DNA from: Escherichia phage ph0011
Strand: one strand, 5' to 3'
Sequence record: OP557969.1
Length of the DNA stretch: 64,000 nt
How positions within the stretch are numbered: the first letter of the stretch is position 1; each line of letters begins with the position of its first letter. The position numbers were made by a program, and so were the translations under genes. Below, piece after piece: positions 6,946 to 63,510 of this stretch. The notes beneath the pieces were generated by a model that was not told the DNA's origin, did no database searches, and saw only the letters and a list, made by a program, of their open reading frames with translations.

Positions 6946-7301
6946 TGGAATTTGATTTTGTAATATCAGTACATTCTTTCAAGAATAGTTTTCAGTACTT
7001 TTGTAATTTAAACAAAGGTGATTTAATGCACAGTGCAAATGAGTATATTCATTACACTGCTGGTAAATTTACATTTATTGATTACGATTCATTACAGTAT
7101 CCACATCAGGATATGCCGGACTTTACATTAATGGATGAGGCCGAACTATTCCAAGCTGCATTAGTATTCGATAAGAAGTACTTGTGTACACTAGAAGAAG
7201 TAATTGCCATACAAAATGAAATAAAAGAGTATGCTGCTTTGAATAAATCCAATGTAAGTATTAATCAAGAATACAAATTCAATATAGGAATTACAGAATG
7301 A
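6942..7301 (+). CDS. FQ-family paralog (short form)
   Basis: ATGA overlap; core DEAELFQAALVFDKKYLCTLEE. Confidence 0.7.
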   Translation: MMEFDFVISVHSFKNSFQYFCNLNKGDLMHSANEYIHYTAGKFTFIDYDSLQYPHQDMPDFTLMDEAELFQAALVFDKKYLCTLEEVIAIQNEIKEYAALNKSNVSINQEYKFNIGITE

Positions 7302-7663
7302 CATTTGATTATTCGATATACGTTTGCAAGTCCAGAACGGGGTGGGATTTGTGCTGTAATCTTGTCAAGGGTGACTCGGAACATGAGTTGAGTTTATATA
7401 TTCAGTACTCGGATTTGTGTTTTAATTTTATTGATGTATTGTATGATGACTTCGACTATAACTCTGAAAGTATTACAGATTATACAGTACTGGATGATGC
7501 TGAACTATTTCAAGCTTCTTTGGTGTTTGACAAGAATAAGTACTCATGTACAATAGAAGATATGATTTTTATACAAAATGAAATGAAGAGATATGTCAAA
7601 GAAAACACCTTTGATACATCTACACCAACAACAAGTAATTATTATTTCAATACAGGTGAGTAA
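7298..7663 (+). CDS. FQ-family paralog (short form)
   Basis: ATGA overlap; core DDAELFQASLVFDKNKYSCTIED. Confidence 0.7.
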   Translation: MTFDYSIYVCKSRTGWDLCCNLVKGDSEHELSLYIQYSDLCFNFIDVLYDDFDYNSESITDYTVLDDAELFQASLVFDKNKYSCTIEDMIFIQNEMKRYVKENTFDTSTPTTSNYYFNTGE

Positions 7664-52301: not shown

Positions 52302-52997
52302 ATGGTTGAACAATTCAATTTTGGTGGTTATGCTAATGGTGAAGTAAGTAACATTTCTATTCCATATGTAGTTGAGAAAGTTAATGGTTCAGAACGTACA
52401 TATGATCTAGCATCTCGTATGATGCAAGACCGTATCATTTTCCTTGATACTGACTTCAATGACCAAATGGCACATATCATCAAACAACAATTGGTGTGGT
52501 TAGACTCACAAGGTGATTCCCCTATTACATTCTATATTAGCTCACCGGGCGGTTCAGTACACGCAGGATTGGGTATTGCAGATGTTGCCAAGTCTTGTGT
52601 TTCACCAATTCGTACTGTAGTAATGGGTTATGCAGCTTCAATGGGGTGTTATACTCAATCGGTAATTGGTACTAAAGGTTTTCGTTTAGGTGGTAAGCGT
52701 TCTTACTTTATGTGTCATCAAGTAAGTTCTGGCACACAAGGTTTAATTACCGACCAGAAGATTTCACTTAAACATTCTGATGAATTGAATACACTATTGA
52801 CCAAAGAAATCGCAGAAGCAGTAGGTGTTTCTCATGAACAACTACTGAAAGATGCAGACCGTGATTTGTGGTTGAATGCTGAAGAAGCACTCGAATATGG
52901 TGAAAAAGGATTTATCGATGGTATTATCCTTGGACCACGCAACGAGAAAGGTCAATACCTAGTCAAGCGTCGTGGTGGTGTTGAAGAGTGGGTGTAA
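52302..52997 (+). CDS. ClpP-like serine protease (peptidase S14 family)
   Basis: ATG after GAGGAAAA; segments RIIFLDTDFND, ISSPGGSVHAG, GYAASMGC (Ser), MCHQ (His) align with canonical ClpP. Confidence 0.85.
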   Translation: MVEQFNFGGYANGEVSNISIPYVVEKVNGSERTYDLASRMMQDRIIFLDTDFNDQMAHIIKQQLVWLDSQGDSPITFYISSPGGSVHAGLGIADVAKSCVSPIRTVVMGYAASMGCYTQSVIGTKGFRLGGKRSYFMCHQVSSGTQGLITDQKISLKHSDELNTLLTKEIAEAVGVSHEQLLKDADRDLWLNAEEALEYGEKGFIDGIILGPRNEKGQYLVKRRGGVEEWV

Positions 52998-55356: not shown

Positions 55357-58029
55357 TTAAGCACTGATTGTTACAGTTGCAGTATCTTTTTTATTACCAT
55401 CCACTGTAGTCACTGTAATGATTACAGAACCTTCTTCTAGAGCAGTTACTAATCCATCATCACTAATAGATACTTTAGTAGGTTTATCTGCACTATAAGT
55501 TACTGATTTGTTAGTTGCTTTAGCTGGTAGAACTTCTGGAACTAGTTGAACTGTTTTAGTTCCTGATAGTGAAAGTTCAGTAGTTTTAGGTGTTAAACTA
55601 ACACTGGATACTGGAACTGGAATATTAACGATTACTGATGTTTGACCAGTAACATCACTACCATCAGCGGCAGTAGCGATAATATTTGCAGTACCATTAG
55701 TTAGTGCAGTTACGATACCAGTATTAGCATCTACTTTAGCAATTTCTGGAGCACTGGATGACCAAATTACATTTTTATTGGTTGCATCACTTGGGGTAAT
55801 TGCAGCAGCCATTTGTTTAGTTGCATTCAATGTAGTCAAAGTTTGATCTTTAGGAGTTACATCAATTGCAGTTACTGGCACTGGAATATTAACAGTAATA
55901 ACACCTTGACCTGTTTTACCACTTCCATCAGCAGCAGTTGCGATAATGTTTGCAGAACCGTTAGTTAACGCAGTTACAACACCAGTACTAGCATCTACTT
56001 TCGCTACAGCAGGTTTACTGGAAGACCATGTTACAGATTTATTTGTTGCGTTAGTTGGAAGAACTTCAGCAGCCATTGCTTGAGTTGCGTTAACAGCAGT
56101 CAATGTTTTAGTTGCTGGAGTAACATTAATAGATGCGACTGGAACTGGAATTGCTACAGTTACCGCACATTTTGCAGTTTTTGCTCCATCAGCAGTTGTT
56201 ACTGTGATATCAGCAGTGCCATTTGCTACAGCAGTGATTAAACCAGTTGGACTAACAGTTGCCACTCCATCAGCAGAAGTACTATAAGTTACTGCTTTGT
56301 TGGTAGCATTAGGTGGTAGTACAGTTGGTGTTAGTTGTTGAGTATCACCGACTGAAGTTAATTTAGCACTTGTTGGAGATACTGATACACTTGCAACAGG
56401 AACTGGAATGTTAACAGTTACCACGCAAACTTTAGAAAATCCACCATCAGATGTGGTTGCTGTAATATTTGCAGTACCGTTTGCAACAGCAGTGATTAAA
56501 CCAGTTGGACTTACCGTTGCGACACCCTCAGCAGAAGTAGTGTATGAAATATCTTTACGACGAGCGTTATCTGGAATAACAGATGCAGTTAGTTGTTGAG
56601 TAGCACCTACAGAAGTTAGGGTTGCTGTCAACGGAGTCATATTAATTCCAGTTACTGGGATCGTTACATCAATCACTGATTCAGCAGTTTTAGCACCATC
56701 ATCAGTGGTAACAGTAATAGTTGTAGTACCGTTATCAACCGAAGTTACTAGACCAGTATTACTAACTTTTGCTACGTCTGGATATGAAGAAACATATGAA
56801 ACTGCTTTATTGGATGCAGTTGCAGGAGCAACGGTTGTTTCTAATTGTTTAGTATCACCTAATGTTGAGAATGTATAAGTACTAGGAGTCATTGTGACAC
56901 CAGATACTGGTGTTTTCACTGTGATTGTAGTAGTGTCCGTTTTAGCACCATCTTCGGTTGTAGCTGTAATCACCACTGTGCCGTTAGCCACACCAGTTAC
57001 TAGACCAGAAGTAGGGTTAACAGTTGCTATATCAGGTGTTGCTGAAGACCACGTGACGTTTTTATTAGTTGCATCATCAGGAGATATTGTAGCAGTTAAT
57101 TGTTGAGTACTGCCAACGTTAATTGATGCAGTTTTAGGAGAAACAACAACACCACTAACTGGAGTTGTTACAGTAACAGTACATTTTGAAACAAATGAAC
57201 CATCAACTGTAGTTGCAATTACATCAGTACTGCCATCTGCAATACCAGTTACCATACCAGTTGGACTTACAGTTGCGAAGCGTGGTATACTGGATGACCA
57301 AATAACACTTTTATCACTTGCATCATCGGGTGATACGGTAGCTGTTAGTTGATGAGTTTTACCAACACCAAGAGATAGAGTTGAAGGAGAAACAACAACA
57401 CCACTAACTGGAGTTGTTACAGTAAATGCACAAACATCGGTGAAACCACCATCATGAGTAGTAACTGTTACATTTGCATTACCATTAGCACGGGCAATTG
57501 CTAAACCAGTTTGAGCATCAACTTCAACTATTGTTGGAGCAGAGGAACTATAACTTACTGTTGGATCATTTGCATAATCTGGATTAATTGTAGCTGATAG
57601 TTGTTGTGTGCTACCAACTTTAAGTGCTACTACTTTGGGTGAAATAATAACACCATTAACTGGTGTAGTATAATCACGTTTAACCACACGACCATTGTTC
57701 AATTTAATAATACGACCCATATAAAGAGTAGCATATCCCTTACTAATCCCATCATCTACATAAATCATAAATGAATTGTCTTGAACCATATTAATTGCGT
57801 CTACTGGCTTAACAGTATTTGGAATGTCGATACCACGGGTATCATACCAACACATGGAAACTTTGTAATATATATCACCATTATCATTGATGAGATCATA
57901 CACGTTACTGGAACGTTGACGGTTAATATATAAAGTTTCGGTTAATACCTTACCATCGATTTTAGCGACAGAAACTTTAATACCACCAATACCAAATGGC
58001 AATTTACCTTCACTAGATATTGCTTTCAT
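55357..58029 (-). CDS. large virion-surface-type protein with about nine to ten tandem Ig-like (Big_2-type) domains
   Basis: 890-aa ORF, the only strong minus-strand gene; AAGGAAA RBS; repeated 85-90-aa units TPVSGV..SP...L.VG.TQQLTATV.P.DATNK.V.WSS..P..A.V...G.VT.VA.GT..ITATT.DG; ~120-aa non-repeat N-terminal domain. Confidence 0.85.
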   Translation of the reverse strand: MKAISSEGKLPFGIGGIKVSVAKIDGKVLTETLYINRQRSSNVYDLINDNGDIYYKVSMCWYDTRGIDIPNTVKPVDAINMVQDNSFMIYVDDGISKGYATLYMGRIIKLNNGRVVKRDYTTPVNGVIISPKVVALKVGSTQQLSATINPDYANDPTVSYSSSAPTIVEVDAQTGLAIARANGNANVTVTTHDGGFTDVCAFTVTTPVSGVVVSPSTLSLGVGKTHQLTATVSPDDASDKSVIWSSSIPRFATVSPTGMVTGIADGSTDVIATTVDGSFVSKCTVTVTTPVSGVVVSPKTASINVGSTQQLTATISPDDATNKNVTWSSATPDIATVNPTSGLVTGVANGTVVITATTEDGAKTDTTTITVKTPVSGVTMTPSTYTFSTLGDTKQLETTVAPATASNKAVSYVSSYPDVAKVSNTGLVTSVDNGTTTITVTTDDGAKTAESVIDVTIPVTGINMTPLTATLTSVGATQQLTASVIPDNARRKDISYTTSAEGVATVSPTGLITAVANGTANITATTSDGGFSKVCVVTVNIPVPVASVSVSPTSAKLTSVGDTQQLTPTVLPPNATNKAVTYSTSADGVATVSPTGLITAVANGTADITVTTADGAKTAKCAVTVAIPVPVASINVTPATKTLTAVNATQAMAAEVLPTNATNKSVTWSSSKPAVAKVDASTGVVTALTNGSANIIATAADGSGKTGQGVITVNIPVPVTAIDVTPKDQTLTTLNATKQMAAAITPSDATNKNVIWSSSAPEIAKVDANTGIVTALTNGTANIIATAADGSDVTGQTSVIVNIPVPVSSVSLTPKTTELSLSGTKTVQLVPEVLPAKATNKSVTYSADKPTKVSISDDGLVTALEEGSVIITVTTVDGNKKDTATVTISA
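55360..57670 (-). repeat. in-frame tandem repeats of about 255-270 bp encoding Ig-like domains
   Basis: Recurrent nucleotide and peptide units visible across the gene body. Confidence 0.65.
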
Positions 58030-58066
58030 ATACTTTCCTTTATAAAATTGTATTGTATTGTTATAT

Positions 58067-58074
58067 TATTTATA
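58067..58074 (-). promoter_or_regulatory. T4-type late promoter (TATAAATA)
   Basis: TATAAATA on the minus strand 38 nt upstream of the ATG at 58029. Confidence 0.45.
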
Positions 58075-58265
58075 TTATAACAAAATTATTTTAGTATTAA
58101 AAAGGTGTTCGAATGCTTCTTGAAATCTGGCTTGGACAGGTCAATCTTTGCTTTTAAAATGGAATTGTAAACTGCCTCCTGATATGATATCATAGTTTAA
58201 ATGGTAAATCAATAAACTTAACAAAAAAAACTTGCTACTACAGTCATAATTGTTCAATTTTGTAC

Positions 58266-58294
58266 TTGACATAATTAATCAATTATTGTACTAT
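58266..58294 (+). promoter_or_regulatory. candidate sigma70-like promoter
   Basis: TTGACA-N17-TACTAT about 35 nt upstream of the ATG at 58330. Confidence 0.4.
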
Positions 58295-58329
58295 TGTTAA
58301 TGTTCCTTAACTCAAATCCGAGGTAATCA

Positions 58330-58935
58330 ATGAAACTATTCTTGAAAGAGATTGTACAAACCGTTGTTTTAATCGCTGCATTAAATTTTCCAGCAGCGGC
58401 AGAAGTTTCAAAAAAAGCATCTGTTCTTCTATTAAATGAACAGGTTGTATCAATGGATGGTGAACTAAATGATAATACGGTACAAGAAGTAGAGCAGTTG
58501 TGGAAAGAAAAAAGATTTAAAATTTTAACAATTACATCACCTGGGGGTGATTTTGATGCTGGTATTAAAATGGCAAATTTTGTTAGAGACAATGGTATAA
58601 ATTTAATTGTTTCTAAATATTGCAATTCGGCATGTACTGTGGTATTCTTTAGTGTATCCCCAGAAAAGCGATATATGACAAATCAATCAGTACTGGGATT
58701 GCATAATATTTCAATCAAAAGTAACGTTAAAGATATGGATCATACTTTCGTATCTGTTAGACAACTATCATCATTTACTGAAGAAATGGCAACAAAAGTA
58801 GGATTTTTATTTACACTATATTCAGCTAATGGTATTCCACCTAGCATTCTATATAAAGTTAGTCGTTCACGTGGTGAAGATGTTGTTATCTTAACAAAAA
58901 CAGACCTAATAAATTACGGTTCAGTCAATCCATGA
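58330..58935 (+). CDS. putative secreted ClpP/SppA-fold serine peptidase-like protein
   Basis: ATG after GAGG; N-terminal signal-peptide-like hydrophobic segment; ITSPGGDFDAG and CNSACTVVFF resemble the ClpP/S49 SPGG and Ser regions. Confidence 0.45.
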   Translation: MKLFLKEIVQTVVLIAALNFPAAAEVSKKASVLLLNEQVVSMDGELNDNTVQEVEQLWKEKRFKILTITSPGGDFDAGIKMANFVRDNGINLIVSKYCNSACTVVFFSVSPEKRYMTNQSVLGLHNISIKSNVKDMDHTFVSVRQLSSFTEEMATKVGFLFTLYSANGIPPSILYKVSRSRGEDVVILTKTDLINYGSVNP

Positions 58936-59003
58936 AAATAATTATAATAACAGGATGATTATGTTGTTCTTCCTTTGTTATTAACTATATCGGAAATATA
59001 ACC

Positions 59004-59264
59004 ATGACAAACATCCAGAATTTGACATCTATTATTTTTTATGCTACAGTGGTGATATATGCTATTGTACTTATTTTAACAGTTTTTATATACAAAGATT
59101 ACAAAAAAGGCTTTATTAATAGCACAACAATCAAGTTCAATTCTAAATTTAAAGAAATTATATTTTATGTTTTGACAACATCATATTTGTTGTGTATATT
59201 GTTACTAGGGCCATTGATTTATATTTTATATACAACATTATTTGCAATTGGAGCTATTTTATGA
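59004..59264 (+). CDS. small predicted membrane protein
   Basis: ATG ORF; two hydrophobic helices; stop overlaps next start (ATGA). Confidence 0.5.
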   Translation: MTNIQNLTSIIFYATVVIYAIVLILTVFIYKDYKKGFINSTTIKFNSKFKEIIFYVLTTSYLLCILLLGPLIYILYTTLFAIGAIL

Positions 59265-59857
59265 CATGTATTATTGCACACACTAACGGTGTAACTTCAT
59301 TTATTGCAGGGGACAAGATGGGGAGTGATGGTTTTACGAAATCAATCCAAACAGAGCCGAAAGTGTTTGAGAAAGAATTCGTAAAGATTAGTGGTGATGA
59401 CGGCTTGACTCGTACAAAAGATGTTATGACTTTTGGATTCACTACATCATTTCGTATGGGGCAACTGCTAACTTACAATTTAAATTTACCAGACCAAAAT
59501 TCAAATGAGACGTTTCTACAGTACTTAGTACTGAAAGTTATTCCTATTATTCGCCAAATGTTTAAAGACGAATGGGGTGCACGTGATACATCACAAGATG
59601 TTGGTGGTGGTCAATTTATTATTTTACACAATCATAAGATTTATGAAATTCAGGAAGATTTTTCAGTTCTCCAGTCAAAATCAAGTATTGCATCAGTTGG
59701 TAGTGGTACATATCATGCAATTGCAGCGATGCAAGCATACATTGAACTCGAAAAAGAAACTAACGTACAACTTCATGAACGTATCAAATCTATTTTCAAA
59801 ATTGTCAGTGATAATGTGTCGAGTGTAAGTGAAGAGTTTGATGTATTAAAATATTAA
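59261..59857 (+). CDS. proteasome-type Ntn-hydrolase (HslV-like peptidase)
   Basis: ATG at 59261; N-terminal MTCIIAHTNGVTSFIAGD (Thr directly after Met) and IASVGSGTYHAIAAMQAYIE parallel HslV TTIV...IAGD and IAIGSGGPYA segments. Confidence 0.65.
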   Translation: MTCIIAHTNGVTSFIAGDKMGSDGFTKSIQTEPKVFEKEFVKISGDDGLTRTKDVMTFGFTTSFRMGQLLTYNLNLPDQNSNETFLQYLVLKVIPIIRQMFKDEWGARDTSQDVGGGQFIILHNHKIYEIQEDFSVLQSKSSIASVGSGTYHAIAAMQAYIELEKETNVQLHERIKSIFKIVSDNVSSVSEEFDVLKY

Positions 59858-59872
59858 AATTATAAGAGAGAA

Positions 59873-60067
59873 ATGATGGCATACACAATTTATGAATGGA
59901 TTTTGAGTTTTATTATAGTATTTTTTATGGTTGTAATTTACAATAATGCTAAATGCTTATATAGAGATTTAAAATCCAATGGTTATCATGCAAACAATAA
60001 TTTAATGTATGCCTATCATATTGGAATCATTCTATTATTATCAATATATTTAATTGGCTTTATATAA
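59873..60067 (+). CDS. small predicted membrane protein
   Basis: ATG ORF; hydrophobic 64 aa. Confidence 0.5.
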   Translation: MMAYTIYEWILSFIIVFFMVVIYNNAKCLYRDLKSNGYHANNNLMYAYHIGIILLLSIYLIGFI

Positions 60068-60076
60068 GGATTACGT

Positions 60077-60829
60077 ATGATATCAGAAAAATTCATAAGT
60101 AATGAGGGAAACAAGAGATTACTTATCATCTCAGGAGCAGGTCTTTCCGTTGAAAGTGGTATGGACCCATTTCGTTTCGATGATGGCCTATGGGATACAT
60201 TTAAAATTAATGATGTATGTAATATTGCAAATTTAGATACAAAATATCATATTGTTCATTCGTTTTATAACACGCTGCGTGTTAAACTGGGTCAATGTGA
60301 ACCAAATGCAATGCATTATTTTATAAAATCATTAGAGGAACAATATGGTGATTGTTTCCTTCATATGACTTCAAATATGGATGATCTTTACACCCGTATT
60401 GGCGGTAAAGAACTTAAACTTCATGGTAATTTATGTGAAGTGATAGAAAATTATAGTATTAATGGTGATGATTACAACATTGTTAACTGTGGTTATGAGC
60501 CATATATCCCAAAACATGATATTTTTGCTAAACCAAATGTAGTGATGATTGGTGAGTATCATCGTTATGTAGATGGTGTACGCCTACCAATATATGAAGA
60601 ACGAAATAATGTCTTGAAATCCCTTGATGAAAATGATACAGTTATTGTTATTGGTAGCAGCGATACTGTTCTTGTATGGTCCCGATTGGTAGCATCATTG
60701 CCATGTTATAGTGTCAATGTTAATATTAGAAAGAATGATAATGATTTTTTGTTTAATGAAAAAATTATCAAGCCAGCAACCAAAGCAATACCACAACTAG
60801 AGACTATAATTAAGGAACGTATGAAATGA
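60077..60829 (+). CDS. Sir2-like (sirtuin family) protein
   Basis: ATG after AAGGA; LLIISGAGLSVESGMDPFR (GAGxS.ESG..FR), LHGNL (catalytic His), VVMIGE and TVIVIGSS motifs; canonical Zn CxxC pairs not evident. Confidence 0.78.
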   Translation: MISEKFISNEGNKRLLIISGAGLSVESGMDPFRFDDGLWDTFKINDVCNIANLDTKYHIVHSFYNTLRVKLGQCEPNAMHYFIKSLEEQYGDCFLHMTSNMDDLYTRIGGKELKLHGNLCEVIENYSINGDDYNIVNCGYEPYIPKHDIFAKPNVVMIGEYHRYVDGVRLPIYEERNNVLKSLDENDTVIVIGSSDTVLVWSRLVASLPCYSVNVNIRKNDNDFLFNEKIIKPATKAIPQLETIIKERMK

Positions 60830-61377
60830 GTGTTAAAGAAGTTCCCTTTGGTGAATATGGTTCACGTGCAAATTTTGTATTCTGCTATTTCTTTGCAAGA
60901 GGATGTAATCCCTACGAAAACTATGAGTTGAATGATATACCAGAAGTAAATTTAGTATTACTTCAACTACGATGGGATGGCCTTCTGGGTGGATGTGGTG
61001 GTACAGTTGAAAGTACTGATATCTCATTAGAAGATGCGTTGCGTCGTGAAATACAAGAAGAAATGAACTACTATATTTTTGTTTCTCACCTAAAACCACT
61101 TAAAACGTTTGAAATTTACCCAGGTGCAAACAGTCATAGTTTCAGTTATGAAGTAACATATGATGAGTTAAAATACATTCGTGATGGGTATACAACTGCC
61201 AAACATGCAAGTGCCGAAGTTGCTGGTGTAAATTTATGTCACATTTCTCGTTATTCTAAGGGACAAAATCGAGAAGCGGGATATAATAATCTTATGACAC
61301 AGAACTTCATCGGTACAGCAAAACACGAATTAGCGTATCTGGTACAAAAAGAGAACTTACTAATTAGCTATCTATAG
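60826..61377 (+). CDS. Nudix-like hydrolase (tentative)
   Basis: ATGA overlap with the Sir2-like gene; Nudix-box-like GCGGTVE...RREIQEEMN with non-canonical spacing. Confidence 0.45.
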   Translation: MSVKEVPFGEYGSRANFVFCYFFARGCNPYENYELNDIPEVNLVLLQLRWDGLLGGCGGTVESTDISLEDALRREIQEEMNYYIFVSHLKPLKTFEIYPGANSHSFSYEVTYDELKYIRDGYTTAKHASAEVAGVNLCHISRYSKGQNREAGYNNLMTQNFIGTAKHELAYLVQKENLLISYL

Positions 61378-61387
61378 GAGTTTAAAA

Positions 61388-61708
61388 ATGTCTTACTCTA
61401 TGTTTTTGGATGACATTCGTGATGCAAAACAATATTACCCTAATCAAGATATGGTAGTATGTCGTGATTTTAACAGTGCGTGTGAATATGTTGTTAAAAA
61501 TGGAATTCCAGCATTTGTATCATTTGACCATGACTTGGGTGATATGAGTGGAGACGAAAAAACTGGATATTCTTTTGCTAAATTTCTTATTGATTATATG
61601 TTTGATAATAATATTAAAGAACCGTTTGAGTACTTTGTGCACAGTAGTAACCCAGTTGGTAAAGTTAACATTGAAACATACTTAAACAATGGATTTAATG
61701 CATTATGA
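61388..61708 (+). CDS. hypothetical protein
   Basis: ATG after AGGAG; 106 aa. Confidence 0.55.
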   Translation: MSYSMFLDDIRDAKQYYPNQDMVVCRDFNSACEYVVKNGIPAFVSFDHDLGDMSGDEKTGYSFAKFLIDYMFDNNIKEPFEYFVHSSNPVGKVNIETYLNNGFNAL

Positions 61709-62007
61709 TTCAAACACATATTAAAAGTATCATTTGCACTATACTACTAGGTGTAGGAGTTCTATGGTTCAGTAATTATCACGAGAACACTAAGCGTACA
61801 AATATTCACTATAATACCGCAGAAGTTGTAAGTTTAGGACAATGTAGTGAGTACAAATGTTCGTTTATGTACAAAACCAGTAATGGTGAAGTACGTAATG
61901 GACTATCTAGTGAACCAGTTTCGATTGGTCAAATTGTTTACCAGGAGTGCTGGGAAGAAAAGGTTCGAGGTTCACGATGTTATGTTGAATACGAACCAAA
62001 AATGTAA
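61705..62007 (+). CDS. hypothetical protein with N-terminal transmembrane segment
   Basis: ATGA overlap; hydrophobic N-terminus. Confidence 0.5.
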   Translation: MIQTHIKSIICTILLGVGVLWFSNYHENTKRTNIHYNTAEVVSLGQCSEYKCSFMYKTSNGEVRNGLSSEPVSIGQIVYQECWEEKVRGSRCYVEYEPKM

Positions 62008-62070
62008 TAATAACATGAGTCAATAATAATAGCCGAGTACAAGGATGTACTCACAATTCAAGGATGTTTT

Positions 62071-63510
62071 ATGAAAAAATATACAATTGACACAAACGTA
62101 CTACTATCTGATCCAAATGCATCTGTTGCTTTTGATGGTGCTGCAATCATTCTACCATTTACAGTACTGGAAGAATTGGATTCGATTAAGAGTCGCAATG
62201 TTGATGTTTCACGTGATGCTCGTGTTGCGATTCGTAACATTGAAGCAATTATTGCAGAGGCATCACATAATGAGATTAGTTGTACTGGTGTTAATATTGC
62301 TGATGTTCATACCAATATGAGTCCTGAAAGCAAATTGTTTGTTATTACAAACGAAGAAGCTGAAGCACTAATTCGTACTAAGGCAATTGAAGATAAAGTT
62401 CAAACACTTCTCAAAAGTTCTGTACCAGATGATAAAATTATCTTAGTCGCTTTAGCAACTGATTCAGTACTGGTTACCCGTGATATCAATATGCGTATCA
62501 AGGCTCTTAGTTATGGAGTTGAAGTACAGGATTATCGTCATGATGTGGTTATCGGTGATAGCGATCTAATGCACGTAGGTCAACATCATCTCGATATCGA
62601 TTTCTGGGCAGAATTCAGTGGGATTGAAAATGCTGAAATTAAATCTGAAAAAACAGGTCGCCGCCTGTATCATTATATCCCAACACATCTAATCAAAGAT
62701 CTTCTTCCACAAAATCTTTGTATTGGTGACTATCTATATGATAATGCTGATGTGCTCTTTGTTTACGAAGGTCAGTCTGCAATCGAAGAAGATGATGGTA
62801 GTCTAACACCAGAAGATATTTTGGTCTTCCAAGATATTGGTCAATCTGTTGCATTACGTGCTAATGTATGGGATATTAAAGCTAAGAATGTCAAACAAGC
62901 ACTAGCTATTAATAGTATTCTCGATCCCGATGTACATCTAACAGTTCTACTAGGTTCTGCTGGGACAGGAAAAACACTAATTACGATTGCTACTGCACTA
63001 GAGTTAGTTCTGGAAAAACGTAAATACGACCGTATTATCTTCTCTAAAACACAAGATTCACAGTTTGAAGATATCGGATTCTTGCCTGGTTCAGAGGCCG
63101 AGAAAGTGATTCCATTTTGTGGTCCAGCGATTGACGCACTAGAGTACCTACATAAAGATGATGCAAATCCACAAGGTAGCATTGAGGAAATCATGAAACG
63201 TAATGTTATCCAGTTCAAAGCATTGAACTTTATTCGTGGTCGTTCTTTTGCCAATACAATTCTAATTGTGGATGAAGCACAGAACTTAACACCAGCCCAG
63301 CTAAAAACTGTCTTGACAAGAGCCGGAGAAAACTGTAAAGTAATCATACTTGGTAACCTAGCACAGATCGATAACAAGTTTATCAGTCCAGTAAACAGCG
63401 GTCTAACTTATGTAACTGAGAAATTTAAAAATTGGTCTGGTTGTCGTATCATTGAATTGGAAGGTGTTGTTCGTTCACCACTTGCTGAATTTGCTGAAGA
63501 AAATATGTAA
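62071..63510 (+). CDS. phoH: PhoH-like ATPase with N-terminal PIN domain (YlaK type)
   Basis: ATG after AAGGA; PIN-like N-terminus (YTIDTNVLLSDPNA...LEELD); Walker A LLGSAGTGKT, Walker B ILIVDEAQNL. Confidence 0.88.
   Translation: MKKYTIDTNVLLSDPNASVAFDGAAIILPFTVLEELDSIKSRNVDVSRDARVAIRNIEAIIAEASHNEISCTGVNIADVHTNMSPESKLFVITNEEAEALIRTKAIEDKVQTLLKSSVPDDKIILVALATDSVLVTRDINMRIKALSYGVEVQDYRHDVVIGDSDLMHVGQHHLDIDFWAEFSGIENAEIKSEKTGRRLYHYIPTHLIKDLLPQNLCIGDYLYDNADVLFVYEGQSAIEEDDGSLTPEDILVFQDIGQSVALRANVWDIKAKNVKQALAINSILDPDVHLTVLLGSAGTGKTLITIATALELVLEKRKYDRIIFSKTQDSQFEDIGFLPGSEAEKVIPFCGPAIDALEYLHKDDANPQGSIEEIMKRNVIQFKALNFIRGRSFANTILIVDEAQNLTPAQLKTVLTRAGENCKVIILGNLAQIDNKFISPVNSGLTYVTEKFKNWSGCRIIELEGVVRSPLAEFAEENM

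Follow-up and report, generated by a model that had tools for sequence, protein, structure and literature searches.

Neighbouring genes for a predicted exported ClpP-fold protein and a proteasome-beta-like Thr1 hydrolase in an Asteriusvirus jumbo coliphage

Genes at the locus

The DNA analysed here (64,000 nucleotides of Escherichia phage ph0011, referred to as the window) belongs to a jumbo coliphage of the genus Asteriusvirus (121Q/PBECO4-type), with a nucleotide identity of 92.9% to Escherichia phage UE-S1 and of 86-87% to 121Q/PBECO4. It carries two hydrolase-like genes that are already annotated in the RefSeq record of 121Q, as 'protease (ClpP-like)' and 'peptidase HslV family'. These genes and their surroundings comprise the following features:

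58266..58294, + strand: sigma-70-type promoter-like site ahead of the ClpP-like gene, TTGACA and TACTAT at a spacing of 17 nt, from a consensus scan (10/12 matches)
58330..58935, + strand: predicted exported Ser/His hydrolase of ClpP fold (S14-like), 201 aa (Pfam, profile, AF2, alignment)
59004..59264, + strand: ORF of 86 aa, two TM segments predicted (ORF list, hydropathy)
59261..59857, + strand: propeptide-less Ntn (Thr1) hydrolase of the proteasome-beta/HslV type, 198 aa (PHROG, profile, AF2, Foldseek, alignment)
59873..60067, + strand: ORF of 64 aa that lies between the HslV-like gene and Sir2, two TM segments predicted (ORF list, hydropathy)
60077-60829, + strand: Sir2 (Pfam)
60826-61377, + strand: Nudt16-like Nudix (Pfam)
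61388-61708, + strand: cREC_REC (Pfam)
61705-62007, + strand: TM protein, a downstream neighbour
62071-63510: PIN/PhoH, after the TM protein

The block from Sir2 to the TM protein (60077..62007) consists of downstream neighbours and lies outside the protease pair. A search within the window for paralogues of the ClpP-like or the HslV-like protein found none. The 86-aa ORF, whose stop codon shares the sequence ATGA with the start codon of the HslV-like gene, is kept in UE-S1 and 121Q, and the 64-aa ORF is also present in 121Q (L015). Sequence searches of such small ORFs covered these two (TM86 and TM64), and the family searches, Pfam among them, gave no match for either. Small two-TM ORFs border the HslV-like gene in several phages, with no obvious mutual sequence similarity by eye; for this reason, and because phage early regions often contain ORFs of this kind, a partnership with the HslV-like gene is not claimed.

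Folds and active sites of the two proteins

Family profiles were needed for both proteins: in single-sequence searches, the HslV-like protein had neither a phmmer match in the PDB nor a match in Pfam, including the Proteasome family, and phmmer against the PDB gave spurious toxin matches only for the ClpP-like protein. The ClpP-like protein scores above the gathering threshold of Pfam CLP_protease (PF00574), though marginally (23.6 bits), and its family profile matches PDB ClpP at 1.7e-5, with the catalytic Ser and His aligned. The significance of this match came from the diversity added by an exhaustive HMMER search, a shallow profile confined to the genus (A2) reaching E = 0.05 only. The AlphaFold model (pLDDT 93.1), in which an N-terminal helix is followed by a low-confidence linker, has the ClpP alpha/beta fold, and its structural matches are ClpP only. 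In 38 diverse relatives S70, G72, G73, C98, S100, C102 and H125 are invariant. These residues make up an SPGG motif (S70, G72, G73), a C98-x-S100-x-C102 motif round the predicted nucleophile, and H125; by alignment, S100 takes the position of the ClpP nucleophile and H125 that of the ClpP catalytic His, SPGG being the G-G oxyanion motif. D185 (in 'RGED') was aligned by eye to ClpP Asp171, a position that holds D in the window and D, N, S, T or E among relatives. Since the Asp of the ClpP triad thus has no invariant counterpart, catalytic competence appears plausible, though not certain.

Residues 1-24 of the ClpP-like protein resemble a signal peptide (K2 and K6, a hydrophobic core at 8-20, and FPAAA/E) according to a hydropathy and AxA heuristic, by which signal-peptide or lipobox N-termini occur throughout the family. 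The product is accordingly predicted to be exported, an uncleaved signal anchor being equally possible. Among approximately 2000 relatives, some of them on bacterial chromosomes, most are predicted to be exported or lipoproteins, and all of their cluster names read 'hypothetical protein'; neither a dedicated Pfam family nor a characterised member was found for an exported ClpP-fold family with a Cys-flanked nucleophile. The secreted ClpP-fold protein of the original prediction is borne out as to its fold (Pfam, profile and structure search), and its secretion is suggested by the heuristic reading of the N-terminus.

The protein differs from ClpP proper (S14) in several respects. With 25 bits it does not come near the NCBIfam ClpP cutoffs (228), and it does not conform to the cytoplasmic tetradecamer that docks ClpX or ClpA through N-terminal loops and hydrophobic pockets: where ClpP has the axial loops that dock the Clp ATPase, the phage protein has a signal-peptide-like helix and a linker. 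Its Ser is flanked by two invariant Cys and is not accompanied by an invariant Asp. Moreover, it is predicted to be periplasmic, in a compartment devoid of ATP and of Clp ATPases, and from this location it would have to work without any Clp ATPase. The membrane-associated proteases of the ClpP class, SppA (S49) and NfeD/1510-N, use a Ser/Lys dyad. In the alignment of the phage family, by contrast, the His at the ClpP position never varies and no Lys is invariant, and SppA and NfeD score lower than ClpP as structural matches. By fold, nucleophile and general base, the protein belongs with the ClpP/crotonase-fold serine peptidases of clan SK, which take in both S14 ClpP and S49 SppA.

The HslV-like protein matches phrog_1040 ('peptidase HslV family') at 1.3e-21. 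The search for homologues gave 324 (relatives have 175-200 aa), and the family profile matches only T1-family structures in the PDB, with HslV at 1.8e-7, and aligns to E. coli HslV over its full length with Thr1 in register. All top Foldseek matches of the AF2 model (pLDDT 94.3, pTM 0.90) in the PDB are HslV, the beta-proteobacterial proteasome homologue (BPH) or proteasome beta (HslV at E 1.8e-10, probability 1.00). As modelled, the fold is the alpha-beta-beta-alpha Ntn sandwich of proteasome beta subunits, with helices at residues 64-73, 85-104, 150-167 and 171-185. An HslV-like Ntn-hydrolase had been expected at this position, and structural searches returned protease folds for both proteins; the non-protease folds that the original prediction had named as speaking against it did not appear.

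The ORF begins with Met-Thr-Cys, without a propeptide, and the Thr noticed at the outset directly after the initiator Met aligns with HslV Thr1 and is Thr or Ser in 147 of 148 unique homologues. In all 148, D18, K34, G59, G117 and G147 (ORF numbering) are invariant. The mature numbering gives Thr1, Cys2, Asp17 and Lys33, the oxyanion Gly being ORF G59, the equivalent of HslV G45; the register of Asp17, Lys33 and this Gly is borne out by the alignment to E. coli HslV. A G-S/C-G motif lies at ORF residues 147-149. Since there is no propeptide, mere removal of the initiator Met, which the small penultimate residue would permit to MetAP, would expose Thr1 beside Asp17 and Lys33 in a cytoplasmic Ntn hydrolase. 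Beyond the catalytic set, the family has its own invariants, namely Cys2 and T-[ST]-S-F-R-M-x-Q at the start of helix H1, the invariance of SFRMxQ in the larger set being partly an artefact, since the motif was used as a retrieval pattern. The Rak2-like clade, to which the window belongs, has in addition an insertion of approximately 16 residues (~38-55) between Lys33 and the oxyanion Gly, which forms an extra beta-hairpin next to the active site in the AF2 model.

HslV (ClpQ, T1B) shares with the phage protein the fold, the lack of a propeptide, a Thr1 made available by Met removal, the Asp17/Lys33/Gly45 equivalents and a G-S-G-like motif, and by sequence it comes first among solved structures, at an identity of 16-19% only. 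The phage protein has, unlike HslV, the invariant Cys2 and the SFRMxQ motif, and no HslU-like gene was seen at any examined locus with an HslV-like gene. It is not an HslV orthologue, because it lies below the curated NCBIfam cutoffs (NF003964, 17.8 bits with a cutoff of 137; TIGR03692, 17.5 bits with a cutoff of 157.75). The highest TM-scores to the model come from BPH (5OVS, 5OVT, 5OVU), at 0.68-0.73; BPH has no known unfoldase partner (PMC8665760), as is likewise the case for the phage protein, from which it differs by an identity of 12-17% and a separate sequence cluster.

Phage proteasome homologues have been described by Fuchs et al. 2021, and the family probably fits the AAH group of that work, a placement that rests on agreement with the published description and on taxonomic distribution. 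Alpha-proteobacteria, Actinobacteria and many phages have AAH, which are compact group-I proteasome homologues with H1-H4. Both AAH and the HslV-like proteins are proteasome-beta-like, have ~180-200 aa, H1-H4, no propeptide and Thr1/Asp17/Lys33 plus the oxyanion Gly; the extra hairpin belongs to the Rak2-like clade. The 198-aa phage protein, with H2 at 85-104, is not of the H2-less type of ~140 residues. Cellular matches include Azospirillum, Gluconacetobacter, Streptomyces and Actinoplanes, and the family also occurs in Patescibacteria, but it is large and mostly phage-borne (197 isolated-phage records and at least 583 viral contigs, T5-like coliphages included). For phage proteasome homologues, no conserved context or AAA+ partner has been reported (PMC8665760), and literature searches for functional work on the phage HslV-like proteins gave genome-description papers only.

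Conservation of the gene neighbourhood

The ClpP-like and HslV-like genes lie ~5 kb apart in EJP2, with NMNAT/NAMPT between them, and in RaK2 the order is ClpP-like, NMNAT, HNH, NAMPT, Sir2, Nudix, cREC and PhoH, with the HslV-like gene absent. That they are neighbours in ph0011 probably reflects loss of the NMNAT-NAMPT genes, which keep the two apart in relatives and are missing from this lineage; NMNAT, NAMPT and the small ORFs of EJP2 were looked for in the window and none was found. Of 80 diverse viral loci that contain an HslV-like gene, one (121Q) has the ClpP-like gene in its vicinity and two have the Sir2/Nudt16/cREC set, no neighbour family being common to more than 10. By hmmsearch over the loci examined, the ClpP-like gene was detected in Asteriusvirus loci only. 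In the T5-like phage EPS7, the genes around the HslV-like gene encode RNR, DHFR, ThyA and RNase H; other phages have it next to portal-MuF or NAD-ligase/HD_4 genes. The predicted compartments differ as well, being the periplasm for the ClpP-like and the cytoplasm for the HslV-like protein. All this makes it likely that the pair consists of two unrelated, independently inherited accessory hydrolase genes that are neighbours by chance and act in different compartments, not as one machine.

One candidate for a recurrent ClpP/HslV pairing came from an unrelated phage (L006) and was rejected: the neighbour there is a cytoplasmic ClpP-superfamily protein of a different family (hhalign probability 14%), and it has no BLAST match to the ClpP encoded at 52302 in the window.

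The original prediction had tentatively placed both genes in one accessory module with the Sir2-like and Nudix-like genes. In its more specific form, the HslV-like gene, whether or not joined by the ClpP-like one, would belong with Sir2, Nudix and cREC to, for example, a host-takeover or counter-defence island centred on NAD+/ADP-ribose, the protease removing a host factor. The order HslV-like, Sir2, Nudt16-like, cREC, TM, PhoH is indeed kept in 121Q, UE-S1, EJP2 and L011, Sir2 still comes after the HslV-like gene in L010 at only 43% identity, relatives carry NMNAT and NAMPT in the same region (L011 also Acb1), and the genes are co-oriented without a predicted + strand terminator between them. 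However, vertical descent alone predicts synteny inside one phage clade, and RaK2 retains NMNAT-NAMPT-Sir2-Nudix-cREC-PhoH without the HslV-like gene. The conservation of the Sir2-Nudix-cREC-TM block in RaK2, EJP2 and L011 does not depend on the protease genes, 78 of the 80 diverse HslV-like loci are devoid of Sir2, Nudix and cREC, and the context of the HslV-like gene varies as described. PADLOC defence models gave zero matches with six locus proteins. A common module is thus unlikely, and this part of the prediction had to be corrected, although a lineage-specific link of the HslV-like gene to NAD-related genes is possible, since its order with Sir2 is kept down to 43% identity within the Rak2-like clade (L010, L011, EJP2).

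Possible roles and transcription

Taken as two separate hydrolases, the proteins would act as follows. A Sec-type signal peptide would export the ClpP-fold Ser/His hydrolase to the periplasm, where, under oxidising conditions, a putative C-x-S-x-C disulfide may brace the nucleophile turn of Ser100, the likely role being a limited cleavage of presumed substrates that are exported, periplasmic or part of the envelope. The HslV-like protein would most likely be an ATPase-independent peptidase, presumably acting on unfolded proteins, or on specific ones, of host or phage.

Alternatively, the HslV-like protein could be a specific amidohydrolase, or a connectase-like transpeptidase or ligase, that acts on a defined substrate instead of being a bulk protease. 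The invariant Cys2 and T-[ST]-S-F-R-M-x-Q beyond the catalytic set would fit this function, as would the lack of a known unfoldase partner and the insertion specific to the clade, which falls at the S3/S4 site that in connectase bears the active-site lid (PMC8665760). This is nevertheless improbable: the closest structures are self-compartmentalising proteases, no evidence of a conserved substrate gene was seen nearby, and the SFRMxQ invariance owes something to retrieval.

E. coli possesses HslU. The phage protein might supplant host HslV, dock onto this HslU and redirect the ATP-dependent protease to new substrates, for which it speaks that its nearest solved relatives by sequence are HslV, that of E. 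coli included, and that these phages have no HslU of their own (PMC7823757). Such a hijack seems quite unlikely, given the low identity to HslV, a fit at least as good to the ATPase-independent BPH (TM 0.68-0.73 vs 0.61-0.65 for HslV) and the extra hairpin beside the active site in the Rak2-like clade. In addition, AAA+ co-occurrence was not found for phage proteasome homologues, and the family is present in Actinobacteria and Patescibacteria, whereas Table 1 of Fuchs et al. gives no HslV in Actinobacteria. A part for the ClpP-like protein in morphogenesis, as a head maturation protease, or a part as a catalytically dead scaffold is highly improbable: the orthologue is named 'head maturation protease' in some GenBank records (fEgEco12, WPEC5), and there is a weak likeness to head-maturation models related to ClpP (NF045542 at 1.3e-4, well short of the cutoff), but against this stand the signal-peptide-like N-terminus, the predicted exported or lipoprotein nature of most of the ~2000 relatives, a gene position outside the head module, phAPEC6 proteomics, which puts a T4-type prohead core scaffold/protease in that module, and the invariant Ser and His.

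A broader and rather speculative proposal, with little probability at present, is that the AAH-type Thr1 peptidase is a host-takeover or counter-defence protease working with the adjacent NAD+/nucleotide-signal genes (in relatives NMNAT-NAMPT, Acb1, Sir2, Nudt16-like Nudix and cREC) and that, separately, the exported C-x-S-x-C ClpP-fold proteins form an ATP-independent periplasmic protease family of ~2000 members, used by jumbo phages for envelope remodelling or superinfection exclusion. If the host-takeover part were true, the protease might eliminate an effector or a sensor of host immunity, its neighbours restoring or reshaping NAD+/ADPr pools.

Under the preferred reading of two independent genes, the analysis confirms how two accessory genes are already annotated in a phage genus that is well sampled. 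Two points of value remain, a tractable E. coli phage such as ph0011 being a convenient system in which to find the substrate, partner or phenotype of phage proteasome homologues, and the exported ClpP-fold family with its Cys-flanked nucleophile being the second; neither is surprising enough to specialists to rank high on the basis of sequence and models.

As regards transcription, the number of promoter-like sites across the region is not above shuffled expectation; at the site upstream of the ClpP-like gene, the -35 TTGAC(A/T) and a -10-like hexamer are retained in UE-S1, 121Q and EJP2. Because all genes between 58330 and ~62007 point the same way, overlap or leave short gaps, and have no predicted + strand terminator among them, their co-transcription is likely, and the accessory region that holds both hydrolase genes is probably transcribed early.

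Layout of the region and expression signals

The region most likely encodes two independent accessory hydrolases. One is predicted to be a ClpP-fold Ser/His enzyme that works in the periplasm without ATP, the other a Thr1 peptidase of the cytoplasm belonging to the AAH type, one of the proteasome-homologue groups of Fuchs et al. (2021). All ORFs of the original prediction are present as described, including the MTCIIA start, the Sir2 and Nudix genes downstream and a genuine ClpP homologue at 52302-52997.

Features of the region (window coordinates)
52302-52997, +, ClpP homologue (PF00574, 1.6e-41, match spanning the full length)
55357-58029, -, Ig-like repeat protein, 890 aa, about nine Big_2/Ig-like repeats
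58330-58935, +, ClpP-like ORF, 201 aa
59004-59264, +, ORF with two predicted transmembrane (TM) segments, 86 aa, 5' of the HslV-like gene
59261-59857, +, HslV-like ORF, 198 aa, starting MTCIIA...
59372-59425, +, hairpin insertion, HslV-like residues ~38-55
59873-60067, +, small two-TM ORF adjoining the HslV-like gene
60077-60829, +, Sir2
60826-61377, +, Nudt16-like Nudix
61388-61708, +, cREC_REC protein

G+C content is ~30-35% throughout the window. Across 57000-62000, nucleotide identity is 92.9% to UE-S1 and 86-87% to the 121Q/PBECO4 group, all of them Asteriusvirus jumbo myoviruses of ~350 kb. The HslV-like start is the ATG at 59261, as opposed to the upstream GTG of a mechanical ORF list; GGAG lies 8-9 nt 5' of it, homologues share the Met-Thr-Cys beginning, and the ATG overlaps the stop of the 86-aa ORF as ATGA, an arrangement predicted to couple the two translationally.

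A TTGACA-N17-TACTAT site (58266-58294) precedes the ClpP-like gene, with both elements, -35 and -10, kept in UE-S1, 121Q and phage EJP2, and no terminator-like site was found on the + strand from 58330 to 62007. Early co-transcription by the host RNA polymerase is plausible; the density of promoter-like sites in this AT-rich region does not exceed that of shuffled sequence. Just 3' of the ClpP-like gene, the intergenic sequence at 58936-59003 (AATAACAGGATGATTATGTTGTTCTTCCTTTGTTATT) hardly differs between the window, UE-S1 and 121Q; it could form an imperfect hairpin, with no T-run.

The HslV-like protein

As a single sequence, the HslV-like protein retrieved no Pfam or PDB match and reached only sub-cutoff NCBIfam HslV scores (17.8 bits against 137); it did match PHROG 1040, 'peptidase HslV family' (1.3e-21). 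A word-seeded HMMER database search returned 324 homologues. In a 48-sequence alignment Met1, Cys3, Asp18 and Lys34 are among the invariant residues and Thr2 is nearly so; without Met these become Thr1, Cys2, Asp17 and Lys33, the catalytic numbering of HslV and proteasome beta subunits. The family profile matched only T1-family structures, with HslV first (1.8e-7), then proteasome beta and BPH, the beta-proteobacterial proteasome homologue. The alignment with E. coli HslV runs full length, with Thr, Asp, Lys and Gly59 falling on Thr1, Asp17, Lys33 and Gly45, respectively. A confident AlphaFold model (pLDDT 94.3, pTM 0.90) gave Foldseek matches exclusively to HslV (E 1.8e-10), BPH (TM 0.68-0.73) and proteasome beta subunits.

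A further 160 loci yielded 148 unique homologues. All of them keep D18, K34, G59, G117 and G147, and in 147 the start codon is directly followed by Thr or Ser, in agreement with the nucleophile originally proposed next to the initiator Met. SFRMxQ served as the retrieval pattern for this larger set, where its invariance cannot be counted; it was already invariant in the 48-sequence alignment, whose search did not use it. Together, the catalytic register, the T1-only profile and Foldseek matches and the sub-cutoff HslV scores bear out the suggested HslV/proteasome-beta fold; more precisely, the protein is a Thr1 Ntn hydrolase of the proteasome type that lacks a propeptide, and it is not an HslV orthologue. 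In the Rak2-like clade (the window's phage group, at least 43% identity) a beta-hairpin of about 16 residues, modelled with confidence, is inserted after Lys34 and before Gly59, at S3/S4, where connectase carries an active-site lid (PMC8665760).

Phage-borne proteasome homologues (PPH, AAH and CPH) were described by Fuchs, Alva and Lupas in 2021, with neither an informative genomic context nor an AAA+ partner (PMC8665760). PPHs have ~140 aa and lack H2, and AAHs occur in alpha-proteobacteria, Actinobacteria and many phages (PMC8665760). With H1-H4 and 198 residues, the HslV-like protein is not of the PPH type; it fits the description of AAH, an assignment made on these traits, as its cellular relatives are found in Azospirillum and other Alphaproteobacteria and in Actinobacteria, as well as in Myxococcota, Patescibacteria and some Firmicutes. 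HslV genes without HslU have also been noted in Salmonella jumbo phages (PMC7823757).

The ClpP-like protein

Pfam CLP_protease matches the ClpP-like protein just over the gathering score (5.5e-5). A word-seeded search gave no more than 11 relatives, seemingly confined to Asteriusvirus-type phages, whose profile barely matched ClpP in the PDB (E 0.05); exhaustive HMMER searching raised the number to 2026, and the deeper profile reached ClpP at 1.7e-5. Across 38 diverse relatives S70, G72, G73, C98, S100, C102 and H125 are invariant; they make up the motifs S-P-G-G and C-x-S-x-C together with a conserved His. The central Ser of C-x-S-x-C falls on the nucleophile of ClpP and the His on its catalytic His; the position of the triad Asp, aligned by eye, varies.

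The AlphaFold model (pLDDT 93.1) has an N-terminal helix (2-19), a low-confidence linker and an alpha/beta core. Secretion, also part of the original prediction, agrees with an N-terminus that by a hydropathy and AxA heuristic resembles a Sec signal peptide (K2, K6, hydrophobic core 8-20, FPAAA|E); by the same heuristic, about 34 of the 38 relatives have such N-termini and several have lipoboxes. Export would take the protein away from ATP and Clp ATPases, and would accord with a putative disulfide joining the invariant Cys residues on either side of the nucleophile. The gene is mosaic: nucleotide similarity to 121Q-type phages starts at ~58528, residues 25-66 belonging to another allele lineage and the remainder being nearly identical to the 121Q type. 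One relative (P0130) combines a window-type N-terminus with a divergent middle.

Both folds are correctly interpreted and already on record: RefSeq 121Q lists gp473 as 'protease (ClpP-like)' and gp475 as 'peptidase HslV family; protease (ClpYQ-like)', and several other records carry similar labels. No functional study of either family was found in the literature, and the main residual value lies in two functionally uncharacterised families present in a tractable coliphage.

Genomic context

The proposal that the protease pair and the Sir2 and Nudix genes form one accessory module is not supported. Among the loci first compared, HMM searching detected the ClpP-like family in no others than the window, UE-S1 and 121Q. 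RaK2 (Alcyoneusvirus) has the order ClpP-like, NMNAT, HNH, NAMPT, hypothetical, Sir2, Nudix, cREC, membrane protein, PhoH, with no HslV-like gene at this locus. In EJP2 ~5 kb separate the ClpP-like from the HslV-like gene, with a reverse-strand adhesin gene, NMNAT and NAMPT between them, and L011, another locus of the clade, has the HslV-like gene between NMNAT/NAMPT and Acb1-Sir2-Nudt16-cREC-PhoH, with no ClpP-like ORF detected by HMM search. As NMNAT and NAMPT were not found in the window, the adjacency of the two protease genes is what remains when the NMNAT-NAMPT block is absent; the EJP2 small ORFs searched for in the window were not found either. The two proteins are also predicted to act in different compartments.

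Isolated phages with the HslV-like family account for 197 records, among them T5-like Epseptimavirus and phages of Aeromonas, Vibrio and Xanthomonas; at least 583 viral contigs also carry it. Among 80 diverse viral loci surveyed with 10 kb flanks, the exported ClpP-like gene lies near it in one (121Q itself) and Sir2/Nudt16/cREC in two; de novo clustering found no neighbour family in more than 10. The commonest neighbours are a portal-MuF fusion, an HD_4 protein, a PheRS-like protein, an NAD-dependent ligase and dCMP deaminase; in EPS7 the gene sits amid RNR, DHFR, ThyA and RNase H genes. Within the Rak2-like clade, Sir2 still follows the HslV-like gene down to 43% identity, which is explained by vertical inheritance of gene order; a lineage-specific link has a small probability.

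In ~10 of the 80 loci (for example L019, 3218-5374, and L071, 2827-4845) the HslV-like gene is directly 3' of the portal-MuF fusion and 5' of an S78 prohead protease/capsid gene, so that its setting there is a head module, very different from that in the window. Short ORFs predicted to have between one and several TM segments, usually two, directly flank it in several unrelated phages (L011 5707-5988; L012 14298-14510 and 15153-15344; L014 4594-4902; L006 5555-5710), show no obvious similarity among themselves by eye, and may be there only because early regions are rich in ORFs of this kind.

The Sir2, Nudt16-like Nudix, cREC_REC, TM protein and PIN-PhoH block (60077-63510, +) is conserved across Rak2-like phages. 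Upstream of it, L011, L012 and L013 carry NMNAT and NAMPT, a known phage NAD+ salvage pair, and L011 an Acb1-family gene (7019-7465); the region looks like a variable NAD+/nucleotide-signal accessory island.

The ClpP homologue at 52302-52997 is labelled 'head maturation protease' in RefSeq 121Q and RaK2, a doubtful label, since phAPEC6 virion proteomics places a T4-type 'prohead core scaffold and protease' (gp227c) in the head module and the gene sits amid ligase, phosphoesterase and dCMP deaminase genes. The Ig-like repeat gene is divergent from the ClpP-like gene; its orthologues have 633 aa in UE-S1 (L002, 1880-3781) and 125 aa in 121Q (gp471, 'virion structural protein; Ig domain'), so that, beside the 890 aa in the window, repeat number varies strongly within Asteriusvirus.
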